Shown: positions 16,801 through 36,262, numbered from the stretch's first letter. The stretch is DNA of 64,000 bases from Adineta vaga (GCA_021613535.1 CP075492.1:8133653-8197652), one strand, 5' to 3'. Translations and numbers: made by a program. The notes: generated from the letters alone by a model not told the origin.

Positions 16801-19800
16801 TATGATATGCTTTCTTCGATAATACATATGAAAACTCTTGTTTTTCCATTTCACCAGCAACTGGTAATATTCGTTCGATCTATATTCAAATAGAATAAAA
16901 CAATAATCACATTTTCTTTTTCAACTTACTCGTCCATCATCTTGTTCAACTGCCAACCATTTTTGAGCAATAAAATAAAACTTTTCCATTGTTTCAAGAT
17001 CACGAACAATGATATATTTCAAATACCATGATGCTGATGAACCTGCACCTGAATTATCATGCCAAATTCGAATATAATTCAACAATCCCAATGATCTAAA
17101 TATCATTTCATCAATTCTCTTCTTCACATTCATTTGTATTCGAACTTACTTTGGTACTGCCATGACAAAAGCATCAATACCACCACGTTGAAAGATCTTT
17201 CGATGTGGATCAGCTAATGCACGAATCTCTGTTTGATCGTCATCACCTGACAACACAAAATGAACCTAATTAAAAAAGACAATAAACAATCTTTTTCCTC
17301 ATCCATTCTTTTTCTCTCCGACAATCATTTACTTTTGATTCTGTACCAGCATTCGTTCGTTGACCAGTAAAAACAAGAATCTGATAATAATATTGATCAG
17401 ATCTACGATTATCACCCAATGGTGTCACTCCCAACTACAAAACAAAAAGAAAACATTCATTTTCACTTCAACTACTTTACATATTTACTTTTTCAATATC
17501 TTTCTTGTCTTTGAAACGACCATAAATCATTAGAATGATATAAAGTACCGATGTACAAATCATTGTCAAATACACAGTCTTATTTTTCATAAAATCAGCA
17601 TTCGCAAATACATAACTCCAATTGATCGGTGCAGGTAAAACAATAAATCCACCAGCAAATGTTGTCAAATGATTCGATAGACATTCAGTTTCATAATGAT
17701 TCGTCAATGGTCCAACCTATTTATTATTTTATACAAAAAATAAATAAATTAGATTCTCTTCAAATCAATAACAACACTATGACATCATCATCATCATACT
17801 TACAACTAATCCTTCTGATTTCCAATTATTATTCTCATCAAGATAATAACAACCTGATGTATAAATACGTAATTCATAATTCGATGTAAAATTACATTCT
17901 ATGTCTGTCACTGGTACACTACTATTATCTAATGTTTTATTATTCCAACAATATTCATTCATTTCCAAAATACTCAATTCACGTATACCAAATATCAATG
18001 ATTGATGATCTGATGTTTTTTCATTATCAATATAATATTTATACATCTTTTCATCATTTAACACTACAAAACAAAACAATAAATCAACACATCAAATTCA
18101 TACAAATAACTTCATTACTCGAAGGACAAAACATTGTCCATCCATCAATTGACTTGATTGAACTATTCAATTGTGGTGCTTGATCAAATTTATAAATAAA
18201 TAAATAACCTAAACTTTCATTCAATGATCGAATTTCAAAATGAACGGAAATCGAAAGTGAACTTGTGATATTAATATAATGTAAATGAAATAATACATGA
18301 TCAGATGTTGTTTTATTCACTGATGTAGTTACATTTTGAAGATACATTGATGAAATAATGATACTAGGATCACGAGGTATAATAACTTTGATTGGTGTAC
18401 TGCGATTTGTTGAAAATGGAATTTCATTTCCATTATTATCCACAAATGTTAATGCAACTGATCTCGAAAGATTTGTATTAGAAAAATTACCATTCACAGC
18501 AAGTGGATCCATTTTGGACTAAACACAACAACAACAACAGAGCATCAATTATCATCGCACATAAAAAACGAAAAGAAAGAAGAACTTACTCGAAGTGAAA
18601 ATGAACTATGATGATCTGTTGTATTCAATGTGAACTGAGATGGAAGATAAAATGAGGCAGATCCAACTTGTTTAATCGTTTTATTTGATAAAGATTCGAT
18701 CGATATTGTTTCTAATGACATAAATGTTTGTGATGTATTCATGAGTAAATTTTGACCAACATTCAAATGAATATTTAATGAAGATGTGACGAATGAAATG
18801 ATTTGTGTTGATTGAACTTGAATTTCATTGGCTAATTTCTTTTGATAATATAGATTTCGTCTTTGTTCAATTGAACTACTATCTGTACTATCGCTAGAAC
18901 CTGCATTTTGAAATGGAGACAAAATGAAACAATCCATAATGGTAATTGCAAATAATCTTACTTATACTTGACCATTCCGATTCAATGTCAGTATCATAAT
19001 CAGTTGAGATTGCATTGGCTCGTGACATATCCAAATCAAGTGAAAGTGTTCGTTCTTGTAATGGCCCATTGACACTCTAAAACGATCACAAATTCATCAT
19101 ATATTATCGTCATTTAAATCGAGTGGAAAGAAACACTTTCGATTTTCTTTTATACACAACGAACTAATCGAATTATGAATAGTGAATAAAGATATGTACT
19201 TCTCAACTATCAAAATATCTCTACTACCGTCAAGATGTTCGAAGCACATTGAATTAGTTGATTCGCTGCCACTTCCACATCTTCATACGGGATCTTTTGA
19301 GCCATCGAATACAGTACAACAGCTAAATCATAACATCTATTAGATGCAACTGTCTAAAATCATATGTGCCACATTCTTTCCTTTCATGTTTACAAATCAT
19401 CTTACCAAAGCTGATCTTGTCAACTGATTTGTTGATTGAGTCATTTGTGCTAATGTCGACGCTTGAAGTTTAATACTATTCGATGTTGTGATTGCAAGAT
19501 TTGTTACATATGATATCACATAATCTCTCATATTTGCTTGAGAATTCACTTCTTTACTATATTCAGCTAATGCAGATGCATTCACTGATGATGATGTCAC
19601 AGACTATTCAAATACACAGAAATCATCAAATCAAAACATATCTACTTTGACTTTGACTTACTCCATTGCCTCCTGAATTTGAGCTTCCCAATGATGATAT
19701 GGATACACTTGCAGCTGGTACTCCATCTAAACGAACAAACAAAAAGCAAGTGACGAACATTGTTTGCATCTCTAATCATTGTATCCTAATATATATATAT

Positions 19801-22800
19801 ATATATTCAATGAGATTTACTTGATATTGCTTTTTCACTACTTTCACTTTCCATCTGATTGAGTTGTTGTGAAAGTGATGTAAGAACTTGTCCAACAACA
19901 TTCTGATTTCCACTTGAAAGTAATTGTACCATTGGATTATTTGACAATGCTGCATCCGATGAACTCATTTGTACATTACTCATCAAATCATTCATGCTAA
20001 CACTATCAACAATCACTTGAACAGATGACATATTCACTTCTGTCACACAATCAACAAGATCTCGAACATAAATAATCATATGTAATAATGATGTTTGTTC
20101 ATCTCCAGCTGGTAACCGAACTTGAAATTGAGAAACAGATGAAAATGCAACCATTACTTTCTTTGATATATCACTTGTCCATACTACAATCATCATTTTA
20201 TACAAACATACATACATACATTGATCATATTCACAAACTTCTCTACATACCATATAATGAATAATCTTTGACTCCATCTTCATCATACCAATTGGGACAT
20301 GAAACAGTAAATGAACTTGTTGTTGTTCCATTCTTTGGATTCATCGTGCATGAACCATTCGAAGGCGATTGATTGATAACAAAATTCAATGCACTTGTAC
20401 TTGATTCATTTGCAAATTGATAAACAACTTCGAATCGCCATAATCGAATACTTGGATTATCAACAAATAAACGATATGATGCTGTAAAGTTACTTGTATT
20501 GCTTCCTAAAAAAACAAATGCATTTTCATTTTCATTCACACAAAACAACAACAACAACATCTTTACCAAAAAACCAAATATTCTCATATGTAATCATTCG
20601 ATCGAACAAAGTCCATTGAGTAGAATTCGAAGATGAATTACTATCACTTTTATAAATATTCCAATGAATATCGACAAGATTTTCACAAACTCCAACACAA
20701 AATGCAAACAATGCAACTTGTGTTGTTGGATTGACTAGTTGAAATTCAAGATTTGGTGAACATAATGTTGATATCACACAACTACAAGTACATGAAAACA
20801 GATCATCACATATATCTAACACTTAATCATTGAAATGACTTTACCCAATAACAACCAATTTTGGAAGTGTATCTTCGATTGTCACAGTAACAAAGCCTGT
20901 GGCTTGAATCGAAGCATTCTTGCGATTTTCCATATAAACCATGAATTGATACATTTGATTCGATTGAAGAGTACCAGACAGAAGTGTTAACGATGATTTT
21001 GGTGAAGAAGTCAAATTACCAAAGATTAAACCTGTTCCATTATCTTTATTTCAATATAAAATGAAAATAGATAGAAATTCTCATCAATCTCTATTCACCA
21101 TTCCTACCTGACCGATCCGACAAGCATGATGGATTCAATGGATCACTTTTCGAATTTTCAATTGTTAACAATCGTCCTTGACTATTTGGAAAATTATATG
21201 AACCATACCATCGACAATAATAGTCATATTTCCATTTCTAAACCAAAATAAAACATCATTTCATGCAATAAATACTCCTACAAATTCCAATAAACAACAA
21301 TCAATTCTTATCTACACGAATAACTGAGCATTGCCAAGCACAAATCTGCTCTTATCAATGATTGACTTACAAATGATCATCATTATCTACTAACATTCAT
21401 TTCAGTATAAAAATGTTAATTTATGACGATAGATTTCTATGCATGATCAAAAGATGACTGTTACTTACACTTGCATCGAATGCATCTTCATCAGGATCAA
21501 CTGAATACGATCCTGGATCAAGTTCAAGATCTTGTTCTTTACCACGTGTGATCATCGATGTTCCCAATGGAACAGGATTTGCTGTAATTCCTGATGGAGT
21601 TATCATGACATGAACTGAAGAAGATGATTTTGCACTTGGAAACTGTTTCATTGATACAGTTAAAGTCAGTTCATACATTCCATAAGCAAAAGTTCTTGAT
21701 GGAGCATAGAATTCACTCAACGTTGTACGGATCTTGTCACTCAATCCAATTCGATAGAGACATGAAGTCGAAGTACAATTCTTCACTGACCATTGTATCA
21801 GAGTTGTAAGTGATGCATTACAACGAAACTGAATTGTTGAACTGATGGAAAAATCTTGATTTCGTCGATATTGCAGTGGTGATGTCAAAGATGATCCACC
21901 AGGAATAAGTGTAATCGTCGGTGAATAACAAACTAATATTCAAATAACAAACATATACAGTCATAGTTTATGTCTTGCTACTGTAATATAATAATGTCAG
22001 ATATAGTTACCTTTGAACTCTTCTGTTGTTGTTACTGATGTTGTGGTTGACATTGGGTCATCTAAAAAGAATATATAGATATTTTCAGAGAGAGACACAA
22101 TGAACAACTATTTCAAGATAAATGAAAGTGATTAACATACCGGTAGACGTAATAGATGTAGTAGATGTTGCGGTGGATGTTGAAGTGGATGTAGTGGACG
22201 TGCTAGTAGACGTGCTGAATGAGGTGGTGGACGTGCTAGACGTGGTGGTGAATGTGCTGGTGGACGTGGCGATAGTAGTACTGGTGGACGTTGAAGTGGA
22301 TGTACTGGATGTGGTGGAAGACGTCGTAGTGGACGTGCTAGACGAGACGGTGGACGTACTGGACGTGGTGGTAGACGTCGTACTGGACGTGCTCGTGGAC
22401 GTTGAAGTGGATGTTGAACTGGATGTGATAGTGAATGTACTGGACGTGGTGGTAGAAGTACTGGTGGACGTTGAAGTGGATGTAGTGGACGTGGTGGTAG
22501 ACGTCGTAGTAGACGTGCTGAATGAGGTGGTGGACGTGCTAGACGAGATGGTGGATGTACTGGATGTGGTGGAAGACGTCGTACTGGACGTGCTCGTGGA
22601 CGTTGAAGTGGATGTTGAACTGGATGTGATAGTGAATGTACTGGACGTGGTGGTAGACGTCGTAGTAGACGTGCTGAATGAGGTGGTGGACGTGCTAGAC
22701 GAGATGGTGGATGTACTGGATGTGGTGGAAGACGTCGTACTGGACGTGCTCGTGGACGTTGAAGTGGATGTTGAACTGGATGTGGTGGTAGACGTGCTAG

Positions 22801-25800
22801 TTGAGGTACTGGATTGTGTTGCACTTGTCATCAAACTCGTTTCTTGCATATTATTTGTTCCAGTAGCTACTGTTGTTGGCACGCCAGATGTAAAAGGCAT
22901 CATACTCGTTTGAATCGTCGTCGGTGAGCCTGCAAATAATTAAGTTTAGACAGGTATTTCTTCACTCTAACACAGAACTAGTTGCTCAATATCACTTATT
23001 ATCTCTCTTTCAACAACTATGATATTCTCACTACTACTTCTTCCTCACAACAATTACTTACTACAATTCGTTTTCTGAGCAGAAAACATTTGAATTCGAC
23101 TATTATTTCGATCAGCAACATACATATTCCCATAACTATCAAATGCCATACTTTGTGGAAATGACAATTGACTTGCACTTGAACCACTAATACCATTACA
23201 ACCAACAATACATCGAAATCCATAAGGACCTGATCCAATGATTCGATGATTATAACTATCCACAATAAATAAATAACCGCTTTTATCCATCACAACTCCA
23301 CTAGGACAACGCAAAGTCATATCTCCGGATGATGAACCATTGCCAACAACAGTCTCTGCACTCATTTGTCCTATTGCTGACATACGCTGAATTCGATCAT
23401 TTCCACAGTCTGCAACATACAAGTTCATATTGCTATCCACATAGATTCCTTGAGGAAAACTAAGCATATTCGATGCTGATCCTGCACTTCCATTTCCTAA
23501 TATCACCCATGGAATACTTGTACCATTATTCAGTGAAACTTGTACTACTTGATGAATATCACGAAGTGAACAATACAAAGAATTATTACTATCAACAAAT
23601 AAACCATAACAACTTCCGTTCACCTTCATTACAGTCGTTACAATTGATGAATTAAATGAAAACTTATCTACTCGACCATTTGCATATCCATTATCAACAT
23701 AAACATCACCAGCCAATGAAACAAAAGTACTGTATGGACGATTCAAATTACCAGAGTTATTTCTTGTTGGTGTACTATCATACTGTGACCATATTAAAAC
23801 AATGTTATTCGATTGACTTGCAACATAAACAGTATTGATTCCATCAATGAAGATACCATAGGGTAATGAACCAATAGTAGTACTCGATGCAAATGTTGAT
23901 GCATTGGCAAACCATGAAGCATCGAAACAAAAGTTTGGTTGATTGTATGAAATACCTAGATGGACAAATGCATCAATTACCATTACAATAAAGTGTCTAC
24001 ATCAAAGAACGAATAGAAAACATCACTCACTACATGAATTGCTTGCTAAGAGAAACTTTTGAACTCGATAATTGACTTGATCAGCAACAAAGATATTTCC
24101 ATAACTATCGAAACTGAATTCTCGTGGACTATTCAGTTGACTAGATGATGAACCTGCAACTTTTGTACAACCAAACAAACATCGAAATCCATATGGACCT
24201 GATCCAATGAGTCGATTATTGTAGTTATCAGTTACAAATAAATATCCATTACCATCAAATGCAATATCATTTGGACAGTCAAATGTAAAGGTACCTGGTG
24301 CACCATTACCAGCTATGGTAATAGCATTCATTTGTCCCAAAGGAAACATTTGAATTCGATCATTACCACAATCTCCAACATATAAATTAAACTGATAGTC
24401 AACATAAATTCCACAAGGATAGTAAAGATCGCTTGCAGCTGAACTAGCACCACCTGTACCAGCTGCTATTGTATTAGTTGTGTCATTATTAGACAACCAT
24501 TTCTTTGCAACTCGATGACTGCCAGTCATTGAACAGTAGAGAGTATTAGTTGTGTCGACAAACAGATCATAACATTGTGCAGTAATTGTCATAGCCGATA
24601 TACCACTCGTGGAACTTGGACCCCATTTGTCTACTCGACCGTAACTGAGACCATTATCAAGATAAATATCACCGGAAAGTGTTGCGAAAATACTTAATGA
24701 TCCATCCATTCCACCAGTCAAATTTCTGTCAGGAAGAATACTTCCTTCTCTCCATACATATGATTGATCATTTAGCCAGCTAGGTATATAAACAGTATTA
24801 TTAACATCAACGAAGACTCCATAAACATAAGTATTAAGTATTCGAGTGTCTGCAAAAGTAACACCATCAGTATACCAAGTGGCGGATGGACAAAACTTCG
24901 GCTGATTGAAAGAAAAAGCTAGAATGAAACAAATAAAACTTAATGAGAAGAAAAATCACTACCTTCATGTCATGTCATCAATGTTTAAACATAGTTTTCA
25001 ACAAAGACTCAATTATAAGAAATCGTTCGTGAGATCAAAATCGACCACTCATTCGCATCATCAATATCGCTCATTGAACAGTCGATATATTCACAACTAT
25101 CTATCACCCTATTACTGAGTACATCATACTTACGATAAGTCGTATTTGGTTGTAGAATAAACTTTTGTATACGATAATTAATTCGATCAGCGACATAGAT
25201 ATTTCCATAGCTGTCAAAACTCATAGTTGATGGCAAATACAAACCACTTGATGTGCTACCAGCAGCGCCTGTACATCCAACTAAACAACGAAAACCATTC
25301 GATCCTGATCCAACAATACGATGATTACTACTATCCAAAATGAACAAATATCCATCACCGTCCAGCATCACATCACTAGGACAACTGAGTGAAATGGTCC
25401 CTGCGGCTGATGCACCTGCTATTGTAGTTGCAACTAATTGCCCTGATTGAAAGAGTTGAACGCGATTATTGCCACAATCAGCAACATACAGATTGAGAGA
25501 AGTGTCTACAAAAATCCCACGAGGCAAATAAAGCTTATTAGCAGTTGAACCAGAACAGTATGTTCCAGCACCGATAGTCCACATCGTAGAATTGTTATTT
25601 AACGATGTCATTGCAACTTGATGATAATCATACAATGAACAATAAAGATTGTTGCTGACATCAATAAAAATATCATAACATATATATTTAACAGACATGA
25701 CTGATGTTCGTATTGTTCCATTTGATGTATATTTATCAACACGCTTATATGAATATCCATTATCAATATAAATATCACCTGTTACTGTAGCAAAAATACT

Positions 25801-28800
25801 ATATGTATAGCCCACATCAGTTGTTATAGTACGACTAGGTGTAGTGCTTCCTTCGAGCCAAATTTGAATCTTGTTATCACCTCTATTTGCAACGTAGACA
25901 GTATTGTTTTTATCGACAAAAATACCAAAGGGTTCGACGCCCACTGTTGTACTCGTAGCGAATGTAATTGCATTTCCACTCCATATTGCATATGGACTAA
26001 ATTTTGGTTGATTGTATGAAATAACTATAACAAAATCACATTATATTTGGTTTTCATCGGGAGTTTTTTGACAACTGTGAAATTCTTCTACCTCAAAGTT
26101 ACTCATATAAGTCCTGTTGCGACGAAAACTGCATCATCATGATGCATATCATCGTTCTTTTATAAATAATCGAAATCAACAAAAGAGGAAATAGAAAAAT
26201 ACATGCATGTGTATGATTTATGTTGTCTCTTTCGACGACGAAATGAGTAGTGAATCTGATGAGAAACTTGCAATATCAATCTTTTTGTCCTTGTCATCTC
26301 TAATAGTAGAATAGATGATATAGATCATATAGTATCAGTGTTTGTCATAAGCTTTCTTACAAACGATGATCTATCATGTCAACTGAAACGGTAGTCTTAT
26401 TATTCGTAATCTCGCATGTATCATATTGTTAACGTAGCAGCTCTCGGAATTCTATCTTTTTCTCTCTCTCTCTCTATCTACCTTGTTATCTTTGTTTTCT
26501 ATTCTTCTATACATATATATATATATGTGTGTTCTTGTATGAAGAGGTTAGTTAGGTTTTTATTTTATATAAATAAACATCGTCAGCTCGAATACGAGCT
26601 AACATATTGGTGCCGTGACCGGTCTTTTTCTATTTTTTTCCATCGAAAAAGAATCAAGTACCAGGTCTTTATAAACTCATCCTTCATCAGGAAAGAGTGA
26701 TTATTATTTCATCCGTGACGGAAAGAGAGTCAGGTGAATTCATCAATCAAAATTATTAATTATAATTACTGAAATTATTCAGTCGAAGAAGGTATAGTAT
26801 TCTTCACATATACGATTCGCTTTCATTCTTTGAAAATATCTATACGAACACGGCTGACGGCATTCGAAGAAGAACAAAGAGAATAAGTGCAAACCTTTAT
26901 CCATACGAAATAATAACGTAATCATCAAAACAAACACGTCGGCAAAACACACGAAAAATTTGTCTATACACAACATGACGAAAGACACCGCATTAAACAA
27001 TACCTCGACGAACGAAACGCACTCGGACGATACGATGACGAAAAACACCTCGATGCTGATGGGAGCAACGAAAAATACCTCGACCGATGTGAACCCGATG
27101 GAACTTCGACAATTACATTCCAGTCAACAGGAAGCCATGAAGAAAATTAATGAGTATTCGGGAGAATCTAATGAATTGGATATTGATGAATGGTTATATG
27201 ATCTAACTAATTTATTCTCGCTAATGCAATTACAAGATGAAACAAAAATATTGTTGACGATGGGAAAATTAACCGGATCAGCATTACGATGGTATCAAGG
27301 AAATTTAACATCATTTGGTGATTGGAAGGAAGCAGAAGAAGCATTACGAGATCGATTCAAAACATTCACGTCAGATGGTCAATTAGTACAAGAATTCTTC
27401 CAGCTTCGACAAGAAGAAGATCAATCAACTACAGCATTTTACGATATGGTTATGCGCAAATATCGAAAAGCAAGTGGATTAGTTACTGAAAAACAAATCA
27501 TTACGGTACTACAAGCAGGTGTGAAACATTCATTGAAGGAACAATTAATTCGAAATGAAGTTAATATCTCGAAACCCGAAGAATGGCTGCTGATGGCAAG
27601 GGAAGAAGAACATATACAACGACGAATTCAACAACGCAATACACCACCACGAGCAGCAACACAAATACCATATTTCGAATCAACATTACCGACGGCAACA
27701 ATTCAACAATCATCATCGCATCGCCGATACGCACAACAACATGCCGGTGGAAATCAACAGGAATATCAACCATATGAACGACGTTCAAGTACAGTACGAC
27801 AACAACCAAATAATCGACGGAATACGACTCAACGGTCGAAACCATGTTTAATCTGCAATCGAACGAACCATTCGACGATGCAATGCTTCTATAAGAAGGA
27901 AGATGGTTGCTTTAGATGTGGACAGTCAAATCATCGAATACGTGATTGTCCGCAACGTTATTTTTTCGAGTAAAGGGATCGGTTGATGGCGACGATCCTT
28001 GTGGACTTCAAAAGTCATCATCATCGACAACAACATCAACATCATCACTTACAACAACAACTGAAACATACAATCCAATCTTTGTCAAAATCTTATGCAA
28101 TAATACTCCACAAGAAGCACTAATCGATACAGGATCGGCCATCACAATAATTCACAAACGTCTATTGAACAAGATCCCGCACAAACAATTTATACCACGA
28201 CTAAAGAATCATCTATCAGCCAGTTGCTCAGCAGTGAACATTATCGGCGAAGTAACATTATTCATCAATATCGAAGGAATTACGACTCAAGTGACTGCTG
28301 ATGTAGCAACAAATCTCGTTACAAATTTAATACTTGGTAGTGATTGGATTCAAACAAACAATGTATACATATTAACTCCCGAAAAGCGAATTATGATGAA
28401 AAAACGAGGTAGAGAAGTATCAACTCCTTTTATAAAACCACCAATTTTGAACTATCCAGCAACACTTGTTAATTATATTACACTTTCTCCTTTTTCAGAA
28501 CACATTATAGAAGCTCAACTGCAACAAGAAAAGATAGTCGATGCATTATTTGAACCAAATCCTCATTTACAACGTAAAGCATTATTTATGGCATGTACAT
28601 TACTTAACATCAACGACGGAAAAGCAACGATCAGTATCATAAATGCAACGAATCGACGACAAACACTTTCGGAAGGCACACGGATTGGTATGGTGACACA
28701 GATGGCAAATTCGGTTAATCTTATAGTACCATCGAACCATCCCGATGAACGCATTCCGAAAGGAAAAGCGTGTGAACAGCTCATTCCGAAAGGAAAAGTA

Positions 28801-31800
28801 GCGAATGAAGGAATTAGCAATGCCAGTTCGGAACATCGACAGACAACAACAACAGACAACACCGAGCACAAATGTCGAAACTGTTCACAACGATTCGTCG
28901 CAAAGAACGATTTATTCAAACACCTGCGTGAACAATGTTATCCTGATGAAATACGGGAACAAATTGGAAAATTAACTTCACATATTTCCGACGATACGCA
29001 ACGAAACAAGATCACGAATGTCCTATGGAGATACGGAAATTTATTCGATCTTCGACAACCATCAAAGATTGACATTATTTTGAAGAATGCAATCGACACA
29101 GGTATTCATAGACCAGTACATACTCCACCATATCGCAAATCCAACAGAGACCAAGAAACATTACGTGAAGAAACACAAAAACTACTGGAAAATGATATTA
29201 TTGAACATTCAACGTCGCCATGGTCATCACCTGTAGTACTAGTTAAAAAGAAAGATGGAACAACAAGATTTTGTGTAGATTATCGTCGACTCAATCAAAT
29301 TACAACTAAAGATGCTTTTCCATTACCACGAATTGATGATATTTATGATCAATTAACCCAAGCAACATATTTTAGCAAATTTGATTTCAAAGCAGGTTAT
29401 TTTCAAGTACCATTAGACAAAGCCGATCGACCAAAAACAGCATTTTCTACAAGAGATGGTCATTTCCAATTCAAAGTATTACCACAAGGACTTACAAATG
29501 GACCACCAACTTTTCAACGAATTGTCAATCAAATACTCGGTCCGAATCGATGGAAGCACATGTTGGCATACATCGATGATATTATAATATATTCACGAAC
29601 ATTTCTTGAACATGTACAACATATTGAAGAAGTATGTTCATTATTGCATGACGCAAATTTCAAGTTAAATATAGTAAAATGTGAAATCGCACGTACAGAA
29701 ATATTATTTCTCGGACACATCATCAAGCAAGGTACAATTCAACCAGATCCAGAAAACATCCGTGATTTAGCAGATGTTCGTGAACCAACATCAGCAGAAG
29801 AGGCATTCCGATTCGTCAAAGCTGCGGAATATTATCGCAAATTCATTCCAAAATTCTCGATCATTGCAGCACCACTACACAAATATTCACCAACAACATT
29901 ACAACAGCAGAAGAATAACAAGAAAACAAAATTCGAAATAACAGAAGAAGCACGAACAGCATTTCATCAACTGAAGCACATCTTAACAACGGATCTTATC
30001 CTCAATTTACCTGATGATGATATGCAATTTAAATTACAAACGGATGCAAGTGTCGATGGAATTGGTGCTGTTCTATTACAAATTACACCAAACGGTGATC
30101 GACCACTAGCATACATGTCGAAGAAATTAACCAAAACACAAATTAACTGGCCTACCATCGAACAAGAATGTTATGCAATTGTTCAAGCTGTGGAGAAATG
30201 GGACAAATATCTTCGTGGACAGGAATTTATTTTAGAAACAGATCATGAACCATTAGTCCACTTCAACAACAAAGAACAACTGAACAAAAGGTGTGAACGT
30301 TGGCGATTGCGACTAGCTGAATATCGATTCAAGGTGAAGCATATACAAGGTAAGAAGAATAATATGGCAGATTATTTATCTAGATCACCGGTGGAAATAG
30401 CTCATGAAGATAACGACGACCGACTTCAATATGAAACGAAATCAACACAAACAGAAACATCATCACCAACGTCCAACCATGAACATCCACCTGTACGAAT
30501 AATCACAGCTATTACACGAGCTCAAGCAAAATTACAACAGCAGAATGAGCTCATCCCGCAAGGGAAAGAAGCGAAAACTCAATCGGAGGATGATCCGAAT
30601 CGGATCATACCCTTCGATTTGGACGATCTCAGGGAAGCACAGGAACGAGATGATGTCGTGAAACAAATTAAAACCAACATCAACAAACAAAAGCAATATA
30701 CAATAGAAGACGGATTATTATTACGAAGACAAAAATCATCAATTTTAGCAGTACCATTTGTTTCACAGGGAAGAATGCGTGCTGATATTTTGAAAATTTA
30801 TCATGATACACCTGGTAATGGTGCACATTTTGGTCGTGACAAAACAGTACGAAAAATACAAGAACGATATTACTGGCCAACAATGACAGCAGATATTGAA
30901 AATCATGTCAAATCCTGTTTACCATGTGCACAGAACAATCATCGTCGTCAAAAACCACCAGGAAAATTACAACCAATACCACCACCTGATGGAATATGGA
31001 AAGTACTTAGTATGGATTTCCATGGACCAATAAATCCAACAACACGACGAGGTAATCGATACATTATATCATTAACCGATGTCTTATCAAAATTCGTCAT
31101 AACAAAAGCAGTTCGCGATTGTTCAGCAAAAACAACAGTTGATTTCCTTACCAACGATGTTATCTTGAAATATGGAACACCAACATGCATTTTAACTGAT
31201 AATGGTACTCACTTCACAGCAGAAACAACGAACAATTTACTTATGAAACTTGGTGTCACTCATTTATATACAACAGCTTATCATCCACAAACAAATGGAC
31301 AAATTGAACGTTTTAATGCAACAATGGATGGTAAAATAGCATCATTATGCAACGAACAACGTACAGATTGGGATGAAATGTTACAATTCGTTACATTTAA
31401 TTACAACACATCCATACATGCAACAACAAAACATACACCATTTGAAATGATGCACGGTCGACAAGCTAGTCTTCCATTCGATCAACAACGGACACTTATT
31501 TCACTTACAAACGACACTGAACATGGAGAAAAACTTCGAAATTACCTGGAAAAATTAACAGATGATGCACGGAAAAATATTCATAAATCTCAGCAACAAT
31601 ATAAGACTCGATATGATCAACATCGACAAGAATTATCGATCAAAATTAATGATTTAGTCCTGATTAAAACCAGAAGTTTTCGAAACAAATTCGATATTAG
31701 GTACGAAGGTCCATTTCGAATTATCGAACAATTAGGAAGAAAAACATTCATTGTACAACATGTGAAGAAAACAACATTAACAAAACAAGTTACAATGGAT

Positions 31801-34800
31801 GTCATCGTTCCATTAGTAGAACGATGGAATTTACATGACTAAACACATCCCACTAGGGAAAGGTGTAAATCGACTGTGAACATAATTGACTTCATTAAAA
31901 TGTATATTTATATTTATATGAATAAAATACATGAATTTGATTTAGCAGATCATGTCGGGGAGATAGGTTTCCCCTTCTCACTGATAAGATGGGGCTATCA
32001 AAGATATATATATATATCACATAGTCATATATGTATAAGCGACATCTATTTTTTTCTATTCATATGAACATTTAATCGATATATCATGGCGATCACGTGC
32101 AGACGACATGATACGACGGATGATCCATATGGACGAAGCCGATTACCTTACAAGAACACGACACGGTCGATCTCACCACATCACAGAACAGGAAAGAAAA
32201 AGATGTAAACAAGATCATATAGTCATGCCACTTTCATCTATACGCGTATATGACGACGCGAGTATTTATATATATATATATACCCAGGTCGAAAAATCCG
32301 AGCCGGATCCGGTCGGAACCAAAATATTCCGGTCATTTCATGGAAGCAGGATTCCGACCCGGATATTTTCGGATTTTTCCACTCGCTTCTGACTAACTTC
32401 CAGTAAGTTCCAGTCGGAAAACGACTGGAATTCACCAGAACAGTCCGAGAAATTCCGATCGGAATACTGCTTCCACTCTCCTTTGTTTTCCGGTTGGAAC
32501 CTTTTGGAACTAGCTGAAACCGTCCGGAATATCCTCGGAAATGCGTGATTTCTGGCAGGTTCCTTTCGGATCCGGAGGCCGGAACGTCCGTTCTGGGTAT
32601 AACGGACAGGAAAGAAAGAAAAAAGGACAACAAAGGAATGAAAAATTTTAGGAAACGAAAAACAAAAGCATGGAAAATTACGAAGAAAAACAGAAGAAAG
32701 AAGAACGAAAGGATAACCTTTCACCGGAGTGACCGTCGCCAGACTATCAAGTAAATCACTTTATTTACTTTATTTATTTTCTAATAGTAGAATGCACTCA
32801 ACAAAATCACCAAAATCAAGCTGGATGAGAAACCAACGACAGATGGAGAAGAATGAAGAACTTCGAGGATTACATCCCGAATATCGTCCATCAGCAAATC
32901 TCGAAATTGTCCACGTACATCATCGATCGACCATACAATCAATCGAAGAATTAATAAAAAAGGCAATACAAACAAGAAGATTCGTCGTCGATACAGAATC
33001 TCAATGGAAAATATTACGAAAAGGTGAACCTCGAACAAATGGAGCTTTGATCCAAATCCAGATGATACATTCACCAAGCAAGTCAACAGTGGTCCTCATC
33101 GAAACATGTTATCTACCAGGCACAACATCAACGTTATACAAGAAAATCAAACAATTGTGTGACACCATCTTCGACAACAACAATGAAATTATCACATGGG
33201 GACCAATCGAGCAAAAATTTGAGCCTTTTCATCATTTAAATTTCATTCATTTAGGAGCAATTCGTGAATGTGACTTGCAATTCTACATTAGCAATCCAAG
33301 TCAAATTTATGATTCGCATCCAGAAATGGAAAGGCGAGAGACAACCGGAAATGTGTCGATGGAAATCAACACACCTGGTGATGAACTTATCGTCCATGTG
33401 GACGAGGATGATTTGTGGAACTTCGACGATAATCTCGGTAATTTTCGAAAAAAAGAAAAATTGAATCCACCTTTAGGTTTACAAGCCGTCGTGGCCGAAA
33501 ACTTCAACAAATTTCTGGACAAATCGTACACAAAAAATGAATGGAACTGTGGATTAGATCTTCATTTAGGAACATGGCAAGAAAAACGATTTAGCAAAGG
33601 TCAATATGATAAATATCAAGAACAACAAGAACGTACAGAAATGATACGATATGCCGTCAACGATTGTGCATCGGTTGCTGAACTTTACTTTGAAAAATAT
33701 CCGGAAACAACGAACGATTACTTGACACCACCAGAAACGCCAACAACAACAATCATTCAAATTTCACACCTGAACACAATCTCCTCTTCGAATGAACAAG
33801 AATTAAGTCAACGATCAAAATCAAATCATGGTGAGACATTGACTAAAAAAGAAATATATTTAGATCGACCAGATTTGTTATTCAAAATGAACGAAGATGA
33901 ACTTGTACAATTTCAACAACCAGTATTCGACAAAGTGGAAGAACCAGTTCAACAAGCACAACAACCAGTTCCACAACAATTTCAACGAACACCTGAAGAA
34001 GAACATCAAAAGAAGAAAGAAAGACAAAGGAAGAAGAACGAAAAATACAAGGAGAAGAAAAGAACTCGTCCAGATTTTATAAATCGTCTAACAAGACCCA
34101 TCTACTACAAATACAACTACCAAAAAATTCGAGCTCAACTGATAGACGATGAAATACATCACACACATCAAATCAACATTAATGAAGACAAAGATGCAGT
34201 GACGATCAACTTCAAGTCCCGAGAGTTACTTGAAGCAGCAAGAACAAAAATGCGGGTGAATTATTTTTCAGAAAATCAATACTACAGGAGATGGGGAAGA
34301 AGAAAAGAAGAAAAAAAGAAGAATTAGTGGTGGTGGTGATTCACATGTGTGAGGACACACGATCTCATACTGGTGGGGAAGAATGTTAACGTAGCAGCTC
34401 TCGGAATTCTATCTTTTTCTCTCTCTCTCTCTATCTACCTTGTTATCTTTGTTTTCTATTCTTCTATACATATATATATATATGTGTGTTCTTGTATGAA
34501 GAGGTTAGTTAGGTTTTTATTTTATATAAATAAACATCGTCAGCTCGAATACGAGCTAACACATATGATTTGTGAGATCTATGCATTGATCAACTATTCA
34601 AAAGTATGATTGTCTCTCATACTCTTCTCAACTTGTTTTTTTTCCTTGATCGATTTTCATCAATCATTCTCACTGACCTTTCCAACAACTTATTCATAAT
34701 TCACTATCGATATTTGCACCCTTAGAATTATAGTTCAAAAGATCTGTACGAAAAAGTACACTAAACAATCAGATTACCATTTGAATAAGAACTTGGCACA

Positions 34801-36262
34801 GAGGATGCACTTGTTGGAATGATGCTCGATGATGCTGTTACTAAAAAAGGATAAAAGCAATTGTTTATCAATATCGAAATGAGAATGAGAGTGTGATTAA
34901 CATACCAGTAGCAGTTGTTGTTGTAGTTGACGTTCCATCTACAATAAATAAACTTGCCTTTAATTGTCATATTAAGATCGCTGATAAAGACAGATCTAAC
35001 TGATGAACTATCTAAGCTATTCTCATTTGGAATATACAAATAGTTCTATTCTAATAAACAAAGTCTCAATCAAGTCTGAACAGTATCTTGCAGAGAAATA
35101 ATTGTACTTACTACAAACATTTGTTGATATAAGAAATTTTTGAACTCGATTGTTATCTCGATCAGTGATAAATATGTTTCCATAAGTATCGAAACTGAAA
35201 CTCGATGGACTATCTAATTGAGAAGATGATGAGCCACTTCCACTGCATCCCAACACGCAGCGAAAACCATACGGTCCAGAACCAACAACCCGAAAATTCT
35301 CGCTATCGAGAATAAAAAGATAACCATCAGCATCAAGTGCTACATCTGTAGGCGAATTGAGTGTAATAGTTCCTGCAGCTGAAGCACCTGCTACAGCTGT
35401 TCCAGTCAGTTGACCATATGCATACAATTGAATTCGATGATTGCCTGAATCCGCAAGATATAAATTCAGATTGATATCAACAAAGATTCCGCGTGGATAA
35501 CAGACTGTTGTCGTTGTGGATCCGCAAGCAGCTGTACCTGCTACAATGCTCCAAAGATTTAAACGATTAGTCAGTGAATTGCTGGAAACTTGATGATTAT
35601 CATACATAGAACAGTAAAGATTATTATTCGTATCAATGAAGAGATCATAACATGTTCCACATGTATACAACGCTGGGATGCTGTCAGTAGAATTCGTTTG
35701 CCATCGATCAACTCTATTATTTGTTTGGCCATTGTCAACAAAAATATCACCATTATCAGTGGCAAACACACTATATGGAAGATTTAAACCACTCGAAAGA
35801 TTTCGAATAGATGTTGTACTTCCTTCTAACCACACATGAACTCGACTGGATTCGCGATTTGCTATATAAACGGTATTGTTGGAGTTGACAAAAATACCAT
35901 TAGGAGTTGAGCCAACAATTGTATTTGTTGCAAATGTTAAGGCCGTTGCATTCCATGATGCATTCGGACAAAATTTTGGTTGATTGTACGAGATAGCTGA
36001 AAAAGAAAAAAATGACAATTTTCGCTCTAAACAAATTACTCATATCAATCTTTTCTAACTGATCCATTTCTCTCCTCATATTTGTCTCTCATGAGAATTG
36101 TTCAGTACAAATCTCTCGACAAAAACTATGACTATTATCAGCAACATCTATCTCATTTTGACAATGAAAACAAGAAAACACAATCTTTCAAAGATACTTA
36201 CCAACTGCTCCATCAATAATCAACAAAAAACACCAGAAAGTGAGATGATGAAATCTTGCCAT
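13816..36262 (-). CDS. Very large multi-exon gene for a secreted polycystin-1/REJ-like (PKD1-like) receptor-channel with four N-terminal NHL beta-propeller modules; spans the LTR retrotransposon, which sits in one of its introns
   Basis: Exon chain traced by eye. Signal-peptide exon, then NHL1, two S/T linker exons, an intron containing the LTR element, then NHL2, NHL3, NHL4. These are followed by the S/T tandem-repeat exon, a 51-nt exon, the REJ-region exons, GPS+TM1, PLAT, TM exons, the polycystin extracellular domain, the 6TM channel and a C-terminal tail. All N-terminal exons checked are phase 1-1 with canonical GT/AG. Exon boundaries in the REJ/TM region were not all traced. Confidence 0.6.
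14036..14797 (-). CDS. PKD-channel (TRPP-like) pore-forming transmembrane exon
   Basis: Multiple TM helices with the polycystin cation-channel pattern (FFRFNHRVSLFTETLRIAANELIQFFLMFSIVYMSYLTLFYLLF...GPFCFTLFIFVVVFVCLSMFLSIINDSF). The C-terminal tail exon at 13816..14001 probably ends the gene. Confidence 0.6.
   Translation of the reverse strand: MYLAFTSVLQIVCTILCMLFIIYFMKVEIQSVIQLKTRYFRQFWSIIQIGIIVCSWTSVGVYIWRFRESARVSNLFEKTNGYVYINLQLAAYVNDILTYLLGYCCFFGMIKFVHFFRFNHRVSLFTETLRIAANELIQFFLMFSIVYMSYLTLFYLLFVSKLSSCSSLLSTAQMLFEITLMKFDATELIEAGAFLGPFCFTLFIFVVVFVCLSMFLSIINDSFRRAKETRIEDQIILSFMWKKFIQYTGKSVY
14825..15472 (-). CDS. Polycystin (PKD1/PKD2) extracellular loop domain exon
   Basis: TIEQYWNWLENSFVDNLRAQQWYNGD...YVGEHETYRGGGYVYEFRGS...QLEWIDSKTRAVFIQMTLYNPNV, the conserved polycystin-domain pattern between channel TM1 and TM2. 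Confidence 0.6.
   Translation of the reverse strand: MTIEQYWNWLENSFVDNLRAQQWYNGDAARYLNGYLNDKSNRLIGWAMMRQLRIKTELCDDQRLITRCEHSYSIFNEDKRSFEPGWINETTMVTMSGGKYSSSIMKAFRYRSSDELDTYAYVGEHETYRGGGYVYEFRGSLSDMKKNLSQLHQLEWIDSKTRAVFIQMTLYNPNVKLLTSVTLLTEFLLTGGVFPSARFDPINFYSKYFLIIVCN
16921..17133 (-). CDS. PLAT/LH2 domain exon of the PKD1-like protein
   Basis: IRIWHDNSGAGSSASWYLKYIIVRDLETMEKFYFIAQKWLAVEQDDGRV, the typical polycystin-1 PLAT signature (WHDNSG...SWYL...V.DL.T...F.....WLAVE.DDG). Confidence 0.65.
   Translation of the reverse strand: MNVKKRIDEMIFRSLGLLNYIRIWHDNSGAGSSASWYLKYIIVRDLETMEKFYFIAQKWLAVEQDDGRVS
17477..17707 (-). CDS. GPS motif plus first transmembrane helix of the PKD1-like protein
   Basis: ECLSNHLTTFAGGFIVLPAPINWSYVF (C-x-C/H-L-T-x-F-A...L GPS consensus), followed by VYLTMICTSVLYIILMIYGRFKDKKD. 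Confidence 0.6.
   Translation of the reverse strand: MTNHYETECLSNHLTTFAGGFIVLPAPINWSYVFANADFMKNKTVYLTMICTSVLYIILMIYGRFKDKKDIEKVNM
21421..21965 (-). CDS. REJ-module exon of the PKD1-like gene (approximate bounds)
   Basis: Acceptor tattag|TTTGTTATTCACCGACG. The sequence SPLQYRRNQDFSISSTIQFRCNASLTTLIQWSV...YGMYELTLTV matches the REJ (receptor for egg jelly) module pattern. Further REJ-region exons run between ~18000 and 21250 (ORFs 18084..18512, 18545..18937, 19807..20331, 20243..20587). Confidence 0.5.
22141..22929 (-). CDS. Mucin-like Ser/Thr-rich exon (789 nt, phase 1-1) of the PKD1-like gene
   Basis: Acceptor ttatttgcag|GCTCACCGACG. Almost pure S/T composition with about five copies of a 52-aa unit. 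Ends ...ACC G|GTATGTTAATCAC. Confidence 0.6.
22200..22830. repeat. Tandem repeat, period 156 bp (52 codons), ~4-5 copies, encoding the S/T mucin-like region
   Basis: The string gacgtgctgaatgaggtggtggacgtgctagacgagatgg recurs at ~22516 and ~22672 (156 bp apart). Diverged copies lie at ~22213 and ~22360. Confidence 0.7.
23062..23955 (-). CDS. NHL beta-propeller cassette exon 4 (894 nt, phase 1-1)
   Basis: A 75-nt intron ends at ccatctag|GTATTTCATACAATCAACC, giving SISYNQPNFCFDASW. NHL blades are present (YGNMYVADRNNSRIQMF, GYLFIVDSYNHRIIGSGPYGFRCIVGC). It ends ...TNC+A at a |GTAAGTAATTG donor. Confidence 0.65.
24031..24918 (-). CDS. NHL beta-propeller cassette exon 3 (888 nt, phase 1-1)
   Basis: Acceptor ttcattctag|CTTTTTCTTTCAATCAGCCG gives (P)FSFNQPKFCPSATW. 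NHL blades are present (YGNIFVADQVNYRVQKF, GYLFVTDNYNNRLIGSGPYGFRCLFGC). It ends ...NSC+A at a |GTGAGTGA donor. Confidence 0.65.
25134..26024 (-). CDS. NHL beta-propeller cassette exon 2 (891 nt, phase 1-1)
   Basis: Acceptor ttgttatag|TTATTTCATACAATCAACC gives IISYNQPKFSPYAIW. NHL blades are present (YGNIYVADRINYRIQKF, GYLFILDSSNHRIVGSGSNGFRCLVGC). It ends ...PNTTY+C at a |GTAAGTATG donor. Confidence 0.65.
26427..26604 (+). repeat. 5' LTR (178 bp, TG...CA)
   Basis: Matches 34384..34561 exactly by eye. Contains (CT)7 and (AT)7 microsatellites. The six-frame ORFs 26416..26700 and 34349..34609 are simply the two LTR copies read through. Confidence 0.8.
26608..26619 (+). promoter_or_regulatory. 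Primer-binding site complementary to the 3' end of tRNA-His
   Basis: TGGTGCCGTGAC lies 3 nt after the LTR. Its reverse complement GTCACGGCACCA equals the canonical eukaryotic tRNA-His 3' terminus (...GAGTCACGGCA-CCA). Confidence 0.6.
26975..27973 (+). CDS. gag (capsid/nucleocapsid) with two CCHC zinc knuckles
   Basis: ATG at 26975. Zinc knuckles CLICNRTNHSTMQC and CFRCGQSNHRIRDC lie near the C-terminus. The stop is at 27971..27973. Confidence 0.75.
   Translation: MTKDTALNNTSTNETHSDDTMTKNTSMLMGATKNTSTDVNPMELRQLHSSQQEAMKKINEYSGESNELDIDEWLYDLTNLFSLMQLQDETKILLTMGKLTGSALRWYQGNLTSFGDWKEAEEALRDRFKTFTSDGQLVQEFFQLRQEEDQSTTAFYDMVMRKYRKASGLVTEKQIITVLQAGVKHSLKEQLIRNEVNISKPEEWLLMAREEEHIQRRIQQRNTPPRAATQIPYFESTLPTATIQQSSSHRRYAQQHAGGNQQEYQPYERRSSTVRQQPNNRRNTTQRSKPCLICNRTNHSTMQCFYKKEDGCFRCGQSNHRIRDCPQRYFFE
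27946..31842 (+). CDS. pol polyprotein: aspartic protease, reverse transcriptase, RNase H, integrase (Ty3/gypsy order)
   Basis: Protease LIDTGSA. RT motifs FSKFDFKAGYFQ and YIDDIIIYS. RNase H TDASVDGIGAVL. Integrase zinc finger H-x4-H...C-x2-C (HDTPGNGAHFGRDKT...CLPCAQN), DDE core (SMDFHGP ... LTDNGTHFT ... E) and a GPF/Y-like tail (RYEGPFRIIEQLG). Confidence 0.85.
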   Translation: MSATLFFRVKGSVDGDDPCGLQKSSSSTTTSTSSLTTTTETYNPIFVKILCNNTPQEALIDTGSAITIIHKRLLNKIPHKQFIPRLKNHLSASCSAVNIIGEVTLFINIEGITTQVTADVATNLVTNLILGSDWIQTNNVYILTPEKRIMMKKRGREVSTPFIKPPILNYPATLVNYITLSPFSEHIIEAQLQQEKIVDALFEPNPHLQRKALFMACTLLNINDGKATISIINATNRRQTLSEGTRIGMVTQMANSVNLIVPSNHPDERIPKGKACEQLIPKGKVANEGISNASSEHRQTTTTDNTEHKCRNCSQRFVAKNDLFKHLREQCYPDEIREQIGKLTSHISDDTQRNKITNVLWRYGNLFDLRQPSKIDIILKNAIDTGIHRPVHTPPYRKSNRDQETLREETQKLLENDIIEHSTSPWSSPVVLVKKKDGTTRFCVDYRRLNQITTKDAFPLPRIDDIYDQLTQATYFSKFDFKAGYFQVPLDKADRPKTAFSTRDGHFQFKVLPQGLTNGPPTFQRIVNQILGPNRWKHMLAYIDDIIIYSRTFLEHVQHIEEVCSLLHDANFKLNIVKCEIARTEILFLGHIIKQGTIQPDPENIRDLADVREPTSAEEAFRFVKAAEYYRKFIPKFSIIAAPLHKYSPTTLQQQKNNKKTKFEITEEARTAFHQLKHILTTDLILNLPDDDMQFKLQTDASVDGIGAVLLQITPNGDRPLAYMSKKLTKTQINWPTIEQECYAIVQAVEKWDKYLRGQEFILETDHEPLVHFNNKEQLNKRCERWRLRLAEYRFKVKHIQGKKNNMADYLSRSPVEIAHEDNDDRLQYETKSTQTETSSPTSNHEHPPVRIITAITRAQAKLQQQNELIPQGKEAKTQSEDDPNRIIPFDLDDLREAQERDDVVKQIKTNINKQKQYTIEDGLLLRRQKSSILAVPFVSQGRMRADILKIYHDTPGNGAHFGRDKTVRKIQERYYWPTMTADIENHVKSCLPCAQNNHRRQKPPGKLQPIPPPDGIWKVLSMDFHGPINPTTRRGNRYIISLTDVLSKFVITKAVRDCSAKTTVDFLTNDVILKYGTPTCILTDNGTHFTAETTNNLLMKLGVTHLYTTAYHPQTNGQIERFNATMDGKIASLCNEQRTDWDEMLQFVTFNYNTSIHATTKHTPFEMMHGRQASLPFDQQRTLISLTNDTEHGEKLRNYLEKLTDDARKNIHKSQQQYKTRYDQHRQELSIKINDLVLIKTRSFRNKFDIRYEGPFRIIEQLGRKTFIVQHVKKTTLTKQVTMDVIVPLVERWNLHD
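27961..27967 (+). other. Putative -1 ribosomal frameshift slippery heptamer UUUUUUC at the gag/pol overlap
   Basis: In the gag frame it reads T TTT TTC, 4 nt before the gag stop. pol is open in the -1 frame from 27946 and continues FFRVKGSVDGDD... through the heptamer. Confidence 0.5.
32280..32610. other. GC-rich island inside the retrotransposon, between pol and ORF3, dense in CCGGA/TCCGG/GGAAC/GTTCC motifs
   Basis: Local GC is far above the window background. It holds more than 15 occurrences of the CCGGA(A)/(T)TCCGG core, several as inverted pairs (ccggatccgg, tccggaggccgga). It is flanked by (TA)n runs and contains a CAG|GTAAGT-like donor at ~32404. The antisense ORFs 32238..32633 and 32338..32724 are artefacts of this composition. 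Confidence 0.5.
32792..34327 (+). CDS. ORF3 of the LTR retrotransposon: DEDDy-type 3'-5' exonuclease domain with a Lys/Arg-rich C-terminal tail (~511 aa)
   Basis: The ATG at 32792 sits directly after an acceptor-like tttattttctaatag. Exo I is FVVDTES (D-x-E) and Exo III is RYAVNDCASVAELYF (Y-x3-D), about 240 aa apart. Candidate Exo II acidic residues lie at HVDEDDLWNFDD. The C-terminus is basic: KKKERQRKKNEKYKEKKRTRPDF...RRWGRRKEEKKKN*. The stop lies 45 nt before the PPT. Confidence 0.55.
   Translation: MHSTKSPKSSWMRNQRQMEKNEELRGLHPEYRPSANLEIVHVHHRSTIQSIEELIKKAIQTRRFVVDTESQWKILRKGEPRTNGALIQIQMIHSPSKSTVVLIETCYLPGTTSTLYKKIKQLCDTIFDNNNEIITWGPIEQKFEPFHHLNFIHLGAIRECDLQFYISNPSQIYDSHPEMERRETTGNVSMEINTPGDELIVHVDEDDLWNFDDNLGNFRKKEKLNPPLGLQAVVAENFNKFLDKSYTKNEWNCGLDLHLGTWQEKRFSKGQYDKYQEQQERTEMIRYAVNDCASVAELYFEKYPETTNDYLTPPETPTTTIIQISHLNTISSSNEQELSQRSKSNHGETLTKKEIYLDRPDLLFKMNEDELVQFQQPVFDKVEEPVQQAQQPVPQQFQRTPEEEHQKKKERQRKKNEKYKEKKRTRPDFINRLTRPIYYKYNYQKIRAQLIDDEIHHTHQININEDKDAVTINFKSRELLEAARTKMRVNYFSENQYYRRWGRRKEEKKKN
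34384..34561 (+). repeat. 3' LTR (178 bp)
   Basis: Same sequence as the 5' LTR. Preceded by the polypurine tract GGTGGGGAAGAA (34372..34383) and followed by the CATAT TSD. Confidence 0.8.
34778..34840 (-). CDS. 63-nt Ser/Thr/Pro linker exon (VTASSSIIPTSASSVPSSYSN, phase 1-1)
   Basis: Acceptor ccttttttag|TAACAGC ... CAAATG|gtaatctg donor. It lies immediately upstream of the LTR retrotransposon's 3' LTR. Confidence 0.4.
34906..34938 (-). CDS. 33-nt Thr-rich linker exon (phase 1-1)
   Basis: Acceptor ttattgtag|ATGGAACGTCAACTACAACAACAACTGCTACTG|gtatgttaatcac donor. The donor sequence is the same as the one after the large S/T repeat exon at 22141. Confidence 0.4.
35112..35996 (-). CDS. NHL beta-propeller cassette exon 1 (885 nt, phase 1-1)
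   Basis: Begins (A)ISYNQPKFCPNASW after the acceptor cag|. It contains repeated NHL blades (YGNIFITDRDNNRVQKF, GYLFILDSENFRVVGSGPYGFRCVLGC). It ends ...NVC+A at a |GTAAGTAC donor. Confidence 0.65.
36202..36262 (-). CDS. Exon 1 of the PKD1-like gene: signal peptide MARFHHLTFWCFLLIIDGAV
   Basis: ATG on the minus strand at 36262. A 20-codon hydrophobic leader is followed by a G|GTAAGTA donor. An intron of ~200 nt ends at tttttctttttcag, just before the NHL1 exon. Confidence 0.55.

Follow-up and report, generated by a model that had tools for sequence, protein, structure and literature searches.

How recently did a long terminal repeat (LTR) retrotransposon enter a stretch of the Adineta vaga genome (GCA_021613535.1 CP075492.1:8133653-8197652), does it lie inside a gene, and to which family does it belong? 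The window, that is, the whole 64,000-nucleotide stretch that was analysed, contains on its plus strand an 8,135-bp element, and on its minus strand a polycystin-1-like gene whose exons lie on both sides of it. We conclude with high confidence that this is an autonomous element of the Juno1/Juno2 type (bdelloid-specific, Ty3/gypsy-like, Metaviridae-like), inserted recently, in antisense orientation, in a pre-existing 613-bp phase-1 intron. The recency of the insertion is supported by several observations, whereas continued activity of the element is unproven. What the analysis shows is the anatomy of the element, its domain folds, the identity of its LTRs, its target-site duplication (TSD), its family relationships and, through comparison with orthologues, its place in an intron.

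Element ends and host intron

The limits of the element and the signals next to them are as follows.

26422..26426, plus strand: left copy of the TSD (CATAT), by direct reading
26427..26604, plus strand: 5' LTR, 178 bp, TG..CA, by LTR comparison
26608..26622, plus strand: primer-binding site (PBS), TGGTGCCGTGACCGG, complement of the 3' end of tRNA-His, after a 3-nt TAT spacer that follows the 5' LTR
34372..34383, plus strand: polypurine tract (PPT), GGTGGGGAAGAA, adjoining the 3' LTR, by direct reading
34384..34561, plus strand: 3' LTR, 178 bp, equal to the 5' LTR, by LTR comparison
34562..34566, plus strand: right copy of the TSD (CATAT), by direct reading

A repeat search of positions 25500-35500 returned a single long direct repeat, which is the LTR pair, and base-by-base comparison of its two copies gave 0 differences out of 178. 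Both LTRs start with TGTTAACG and finish with GCTAACA, and 30-mers taken from either LTR end occur at two sites only in the window (0 expected by chance). The two 5-bp CATAT copies are identical, and removal of the element leaves the empty-site junction ...GCATGTATCATAT/GATTTGTGAG. The first 12 nt of the PBS agree at 12 of 12 positions with the 3'-end primer of tRNA-His-GTG (with CCA; PMC11662652), the sequence used being the human one and not that of A. vaga. No tRNA-His gene was found in the window or in 16 loci. The PBS is invariant in all relatives examined, and purine-rich counterparts of the PPT are present in L001 and L002, the two closest full-length relatives, both from metagenome assemblies.

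Within the LTR, tracts of (CT)n, (AT)n and (GT)n are found in the U3 part, and an AATAAA about 30 nt from the LTR end is followed by an AGCTCG-loop-CGAGCT hairpin. The last 45 nt or so (26560-26604 and 34517-34561, AATAAAC…AGCTCG-loop-CGAGCTAACA) are kept in four diverged relatives, while U3 is not, and the PBS with its TCTTCTTC leader is likewise kept across those four. Such conservation of the LTR 3' end implies a putative very short R/U5 region with a conserved terminal hairpin.

On the host side, two features are needed.

14036..36262, minus strand: polycystin-1-like host gene, by Pfam and exon reading
26025..34777, minus strand: host intron, phase 1, donor G/GTAATC at 34778/34777, acceptor TTATAG/TT at 26025/26024

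From its signal-peptide exon (ATG at 36262) onwards, the host gene encodes NHL propeller 1, two mini-exons of a Ser/Thr (S/T) linker, then, beyond the intron that holds the transposable element (TE), NHL propellers 2-4, an S/T-rich region, REJ, a Polycystin domain and the PKD channel. The intron is now 8,753 nt long and was 613 nt long before the insertion, and the element lies 211 nt from the host donor. Antisense LTR retrotransposons in introns are known generally from animal and plant genes, and TEs that are tolerated in introns typically have this orientation. Splicing by hand, from AAT G/gtaatc to ttatag/TT ATT TCA, keeps phase 1 and gives the product …SYSN-V-ISYNQPKF…. In three proteins of A. 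steineri (P0085, P0096 and P0092) the corresponding stretch, …SYSNVISFNQPKF…, is contiguous, inside an arrangement of signal peptide, NHL1, S/T linker and NHL2 (followed by NHL3 or REJ), and a BLASTP comparison of the hand-spliced product with P0085 gave 61% identity over 642 aa, spanning the junction. The A. steineri locus L025 has an intron of about 690 bp at this junction, which agrees in phase and likewise splits the Val codon; at the nucleotide level, the A. steineri and A. vaga introns gave no alignment. Because the A. steineri intron is of that size, we take the 613-bp intron to be an ancestral long intron. The phase-1 splice, the contiguous A. steineri junction and the long orthologous intron together decide in favour of an intronic rather than an intergenic position.

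The original prediction, which had described two identical 178-bp LTRs, a clean CATAT TSD, a PBS complementary to the 3' end of tRNA-His, a PPT, and an antisense position in an intron of a PKD1-like gene, is borne out on all these points, and the exon boundaries that it gave for the host gene, 34778 and 26024, are right to the base.

These boundaries also bear on the public annotation. Upstream of the element, the NHL exon shows 99% identity to the A. vaga protein I4U23_013323 (P0117), a 352-aa model that ends in …SYSNGNLIV and a stop, reading through the splice donor (window 34770-34778) before the element. A search for A. vaga proteins at more than 80% identity found none for the downstream NHL2-4/REJ/polycystin exons. 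I4U23_013323 thus seems to be a truncated model: the complete gene (signal-peptide/NHLx4/REJ/polycystin-channel) would be far larger, and masking of the element would have split it.

A side observation concerns the segment 22085-22913 of the same gene, which is the most GC-rich of the window (GC 0.41) and has long open reading frames (ORFs) on both strands; on the host strand it reads as a mucin-like linker, rich in Ser and Thr, that would join the fourth NHL propeller to REJ.

Coding regions and nested block

Between the LTRs, the following features were identified.

26975..27973, plus strand: gag, 332 aa, by Pfam and motif scan
27946..31842, plus strand: pol, 1298 codons, in the -1 frame and overlapping gag, by Pfam and motif scan
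27961..27967, plus strand: slippery heptamer T_TTT_TTC for -1 ribosomal frameshifting, 3 nt before the gag stop
28381-28710, plus strand: candidate dUTPase-fold domain (pol aa ~146-255), by AlphaFold (AF2) model and Foldseek
28873-28938, plus strand: C2HC zinc finger, CRNCSQRFVAKNDLFKHLREQC (pol aa 310-331), by motif scan
32279..32601, no strand assigned: 323-bp block resembling a miniature inverted-repeat transposable element (MITE) or a foldback element, in the pol-ORF3 spacer, by inverted repeats and fold
32792..34327, plus strand: ORF3, 511 aa from the first ATG, by ORF reading
33215..33217, plus strand: Lys142 codon (AAA) of ORF3; 31 of the 32 relatives in the family alignment have Glu here, the other Asp

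All three reading frames, gag, pol and ORF3, are open, as had been claimed. Gag has a Retrotrans_gag/Ty3 capsid-like domain (Pfam) and two CX2CX4HX4C zinc knuckles of the zf-CCHC type, CLICNRTNHSTMQC (aa 291) and CFRCGQSNHRIRDC (aa 312), found by motif scan. Downstream of the heptamer lies a stem, AGGGATCG...CGATCCTT (27974-28000), whose folding energy does not differ significantly from that of shuffled sequences (z = -0.56). The heptamer and stem block is about 90% conserved in L001 and L002, against about 72% elsewhere. As the stem energy is no better than that of the shuffles, the frameshift signal rests on this conservation.

Pfam places five domains in Pol: gag-asp_proteas (aa 48-136), RVT_1 (433-593), RT_RNaseH (691-793), Integrase_H2C2 (943-1000) and rve (1020-1114). 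They identify the element as a full-length LTR retrotransposon, in agreement with the original prediction, and the order is that of Ty3/gypsy elements: gag, then protease (PR), reverse transcriptase (RT), RNase H and integrase (IN), with integrase after RT. The motif scan found the PR motif DTG at aa 61, the RT motif YIDD at aa 542, the integrase HHCC motif at aa 953 and GPF at aa 1255; RNase H extends over aa 666-793. In the 290 residues from PR to RT, Pfam gives only weak zinc-finger matches. An AlphaFold model of the first 110 or so residues of this interval has a predicted local distance difference test (pLDDT) score of 81, and the top 50 Foldseek matches to it are all dUTPases, the enzyme of feline immunodeficiency virus (FIV) included, with probability 1.0. 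A dUTPase-fold domain between PR and RT is therefore predicted, by fold only.

The third reading frame is less readily assigned. ORF3 alone gave nothing significant against Pfam, only a faint match to PF01612 (E = 0.055), and its family profile had no match among PDB sequences. The assignment needed Pfam searches of the individual family members, together with structure. PF01612 (3'-5' exonuclease) is matched by 19 of the 33 aligned family members, and the N-terminal domain (aa ~20-305) has the RNase H-like alpha/beta fold of a DEDDy-type 3'-5' exonuclease, with D67/E69 in ExoI (DTES) and Y287/D291 in ExoIII (YAxxDC), all four invariant in the alignment. ORF3 is, on this modelled fold, a predicted DEDDy exonuclease (Nibbler/mut-7/WRN/RNase D-like) and not an envelope protein. 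Its C-terminal domain (window 33989-34291, aa ~400-500), which follows a Lys/Arg-rich helix, has the order beta-alpha-beta-beta-alpha, is conserved in the family and is confidently modelled; searches with the whole model, which the exonuclease domain dominates, gave no fold family for it. Homologues of ORF3 number 69, and those with an organism name all come from bdelloid rotifers (Rotaria, Adineta), the others being environmental sequences.

The ExoII position is where the present copy departs from its family. In the ExoII segment, WGPxxxE[FIL], no acidic residue other than 142 is conserved, and the assignment of this residue as the ExoII ligand comes from the alignment and the published 'DEED' pattern, not from a superposition. 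The AAA codon found here is one transition away from GAA. Hence, of the four acidic ligands and the tyrosine expected of a DEDDy enzyme, D67, E69, Y287 and D291 are present and the ExoII position is a lysine. Catalysis by ORF3 may be impaired by this substitution, and the protein is perhaps catalytically dead.

The 323-bp block lies between pol and ORF3. Its termini form inverted repeats that are imperfect (TATACCCAGG.../...CCTGGGTATA-like; over 22 nt they are 73% complementary), with nested inverted repeats as well (I5, I7, I3 and I4 in all), and it folds as a single end-to-end hairpin, with a DNA folding energy of -74.6 kcal/mol compared with -42.9 for shuffled sequences (z = -7.66). TA is present on both sides of the block; since the left one belongs to an (AT)n tract, the TSD of the block is ambiguous. 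Compared with L001, L002, L016 and L019, the element has about 360 bp more between pol and ORF3; this excess coincides with the block, which the four relatives do not have. They are only about 72% identical to the element, and the exact empty site is not alignable. A second copy of the block was found neither in the window nor in 25 fetched loci. The block resembles an inserted MITE or foldback element. A minor novel reading, of very low probability, is that an active LTR element may be carrying a nested foldback element along through reverse transcription.

How would such an element multiply? Its replication steps are inferred, mostly from the canonical cycle of LTR retrotransposons, as are, on their own grounds, its current activity, the expression and role of ORF3 and any effect on host splicing. 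Transcription would start in the 5' LTR and stop past the AATAAA that lies close to the 3' LTR's end. Gag would be translated from this RNA, and Gag-Pol would result from a -1 frameshift at U_UUU_UUC. A host tRNA-His would prime minus-strand cDNA at the PBS, the PPT would prime the plus strand, and reverse transcription would regenerate two identical LTRs. The integrase (HHCC, DDE, GPF) would then insert the cDNA through a 5-bp staggered cut, giving rise to the CATAT duplication. ORF3 would presumably be made from a subgenomic or spliced message, and could act on the 3' ends of the element's RNA or cDNA. A much more speculative role, to which we attach very little probability, is that of a counter-defence or small-RNA-modulating factor that trims or sequesters PIWI-interacting RNA (piRNA)-like small RNAs or their precursors, while copies of the K142 type would bind RNA without catalysis, much as EXD1 or Maelstrom do.

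Age of the insertion and alternative readings

Several points weigh against a recent, intronic insertion of the Juno1/Juno2 type. Taken alone, 0 differences out of 178 bound LTR divergence only at 1.7% (95%), and LTR-LTR gene conversion could hold the two LTRs identical. No exact match to the 24-nt reconstructed empty-site junction was found in the metagenome collection, and neither further copies nor solo LTRs, which would speak for mobility, were found elsewhere in the 64-kb window. The assignment to Juno1/Juno2 was made from diagnostic features in the literature rather than from a tree or from alignment with a named reference. As to these features, the dUTPase was not detected by sequence, Pfam and the family profile against PDB sequences both being negative, and its canonical motif-3 Asp is apparently replaced by a family-invariant Asn (…IINA…), which suggests that the domain is non-catalytic and makes catalysis doubtful. 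The zinc motif of Pol, after the dUTPase and upstream of RT, is C-X2-C-X12-H-X5-C, which is finger-like and differs from CX2CX4HX4C. Finally, the E142K substitution of ORF3 and the nested block, both lacking from the original prediction, argue against a pristine master copy. Both qualify the description of the element as intact.

Could the insertion be old, with LTRs kept identical by conversion between them, or simply too short, at 178 bp, for a difference to have appeared? Gene conversion is common in bdelloids, the bound from the LTRs alone is loose, and the nested, foreign-looking block and the substitution at a near-invariant catalytic position could be taken as signs of age. Set against this are the three ORFs, which are stop-free over 6,405 nt although 5.8% of random substitutions would create a stop; taken together with the LTRs they limit divergence to about 0.41% per copy (joint 95% bound), under the assumption of neutral decay and no LTR-LTR conversion. 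Not even the (CT)n, (AT)n and (GT)n tracts, which mutate fast, show a difference between the two LTRs, whereas the LTRs of L001 differ in such tracts; the TSD is perfect. Deviations at family-conserved positions of ORF3 (6 out of 100) are within the range of the family, 0-13. Moreover, most LTR elements of A. vaga have few or no LTR differences (PMC5408684), and LTR insertions are polymorphic within bdelloid species (PMC7943196). We consider an old insertion quite unlikely, and the original claim that the element is very young stands on the LTR and microsatellite identity, the stop-free ORFs and the joint bound.

The position and the nature of the element each admit another reading as well. 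The element might be intergenic, between a short secreted gene with a single NHL propeller (I4U23_013323) and a separate downstream polycystin-like gene. The public model does stop by reading through the proposed donor, an intron of 613 bp would be the longest of the gene (the others measure 55-200 bp), and at about 26205, upstream of NHL exon 2, there is a weak candidate start (MHVFFYFLF) whose phase is compatible. Yet the junction …SYSNV/ISFNQPKF… is contiguous in the three A. steineri proteins, with the BLASTP match running across it, and the A. steineri intron shares its size class, its phase and its split Val codon. In addition, NHL exon 2 begins at the acceptor site, with no convincing signal peptide, and the lack of an A. 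vaga protein over the NHL2/polycystin exons is as expected if TE masking broke one model in two, so that an intergenic position seems unlikely. As for the nature of the element, an ORF downstream of pol stands where an envelope gene (env) would, and the ORF3s of Juno and Vesta were originally classed as env (PMC5408684), which raises the case of an endogenous retrovirus-like element that is potentially infectious. This is scarcely credible: ORF3 folds as a DEDDy exonuclease, its ExoI and ExoIII motifs are invariant, PF01612 is found in over half of the aligned family, no envelope-type Pfam match was obtained in ORF3, and DEDDy ORF3s have neither a transmembrane nor a coiled-coil domain (PMC5408684). 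ORF3 as env was rejected for the fold, the invariant motifs and the lack of an envelope match. We thus retain a recent intronic insertion of a Juno1/Juno2-type retrotransposon.

As regards its significance, the element type, the near-identical LTRs and the exonuclease ORF3 were already published for A. vaga (PMC5408684; PMC7943196), so that the finding is real but ordinary for this genome and leaves current understanding unchanged. Its value is local, in a corrected host gene model, I4U23_013323 being truncated. The locus is also a candidate for the study of hemizygosity, and of splicing across an 8.75-kb intron holding an antisense TE, in an ancient asexual; K142 offers a naturally occurring E-to-K change at a residue, putatively catalytic, of a retroelement exonuclease that is still uncharacterised. 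The nested hairpin block and the C-terminal domain of ORF3 are further by-products.

Elsewhere in the window, two uninterrupted ORFs were observed on the plus strand, one for an OPT oligopeptide transporter (39815-41977, 720 aa, E = 1.5e-90), the other for a protein resembling Ca2+-dependent phosphatidylinositol-specific phospholipase C (PI-PLC; 44328-45398, 356 aa). Being intronless ORFs in a bdelloid, they are candidates for horizontally acquired genes. On the minus strand, ARAGORN predicts a tRNA-Pro(TGG) at 61801-61871; a scan against Rfam, with gathering thresholds, found nothing in the whole window, the tRNA model included.

Relatives and known systems

The Juno1 and Juno2 elements of bdelloid rotifers were reportedly described by Gladyshev, Meselson and Arkhipova in 2007. 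By Pol, the closest relatives of the present element are proteins of Adineta ricciae and environmental proteins. ORF3 homologues, together with the PBS-plus-leader pattern, led to about 15 related elements on environmental bdelloid contigs, with 65-78% nucleotide identity, the gag-pol-ORF3 layout and the same PBS; the PBS pattern retrieved 22 metagenome loci, of which about 13 are family members. All of the 15 or so relatives are too distant to count as further copies of this family.

The two closest full-length relatives show a peculiarity of their own. Their TSDs are mismatched, GAAAG against GCTCC for L001 (LTRs at 4052-4249 and 11776-11959, differing in microsatellite length) and TAATT against ATGAC for L002 (LTRs at 26-211 and 7615-7796). 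They may be chimeric metagenome assemblies across copies, or inter-element recombinants.

The published survey of A. vaga retrotransposons gives the features by which families are told apart. Juno, Vesta and TelKA have a dUTPase between PR and RT, and Mag does not (PMC5408684; Rodriguez, Kenefick & Arkhipova 2017). In Juno1 and Juno2, gag carries a second knuckle and Pol an additional Zn knuckle upstream of RT; Juno1-4 keep GPY/F, whereas in Vesta1-5 this motif is reduced to a single Pro and gag has one knuckle, the ORF3 of Vesta2/5 having a Cys-His-Cys motif (PMC5408684). Juno1/2 and Vesta2/5 share a DEDDy ORF3 that resembles RNase D and has DEED instead of DEDD, and exonuclease activity is undemonstrated for any retroelement DEDDy ORF (PMC5408684). 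The LTRs of A. vaga families measure 159-551 bp, are bounded by TG..CA and show few or no differences between the two LTRs of an element (PMC5408684).

By these features, the element matches the Juno1/Juno2 set, with the spacing of the zinc motif in Pol as the one reservation. It shares with Juno1 and Juno2 the genus Adineta, the two CCHC knuckles of gag, the -1 frameshift between gag and pol, the order PR-dUTPase (here by fold)-Zn motif (here finger-like)-RT-RNaseH-IN, GPF after the integrase, a DEDDy ORF3 whose family has DEED, and short TG..CA LTRs, which are identical and, at 178 bp, inside the published range. It differs from them in the C2HC finger spacing upstream of RT, and in K142 and the 323-bp hairpin block, neither of which is mentioned in the literature examined. 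With Vesta2 and Vesta5 it has in common the dUTPase between PR and RT, the DEDDy ORF3 and the restriction to bdelloids; Vesta is disfavoured because the element has GPF and two gag knuckles.

Comparison with cellular DEDDy exonucleases (Nibbler/mut-7, WRN exonuclease, RNase D and Rrp6) gives only 15-17% identity to ORF3. In contrast to these enzymes, ORF3 is encoded by a retroelement, has Glu at the ExoII position in the family and Lys here, contains a 50-residue disordered insert, and lacks HRDC, in place of which it has the basic helix and the alpha/beta C-terminal domain. The dUTPase-like beta-barrel would lie inside Pol, as do the DU of FIV and the dUTPases of non-primate lentiviruses and betaretroviruses, and its position between PR and RT is that seen in basidiomycete Ty3/gypsy elements. 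Unlike the retroviral and fungal-element enzymes, it is missed by sequence profiles, and its motif-3 Asp is seemingly Asn.

The insertion itself also has a counterpart. Recent and polymorphic LTR insertions are documented in bdelloids, and one of 8.1 kb lies inside a gene of Rotaria magnacalcarata for which an empty-site homologue exists (PMC7943196, Nowell et al. 2021). Both that insertion and the present one are recent LTR elements of about 8 kb within a bdelloid gene; the Rotaria element cuts coding sequence, whereas the A. vaga element is intronic.

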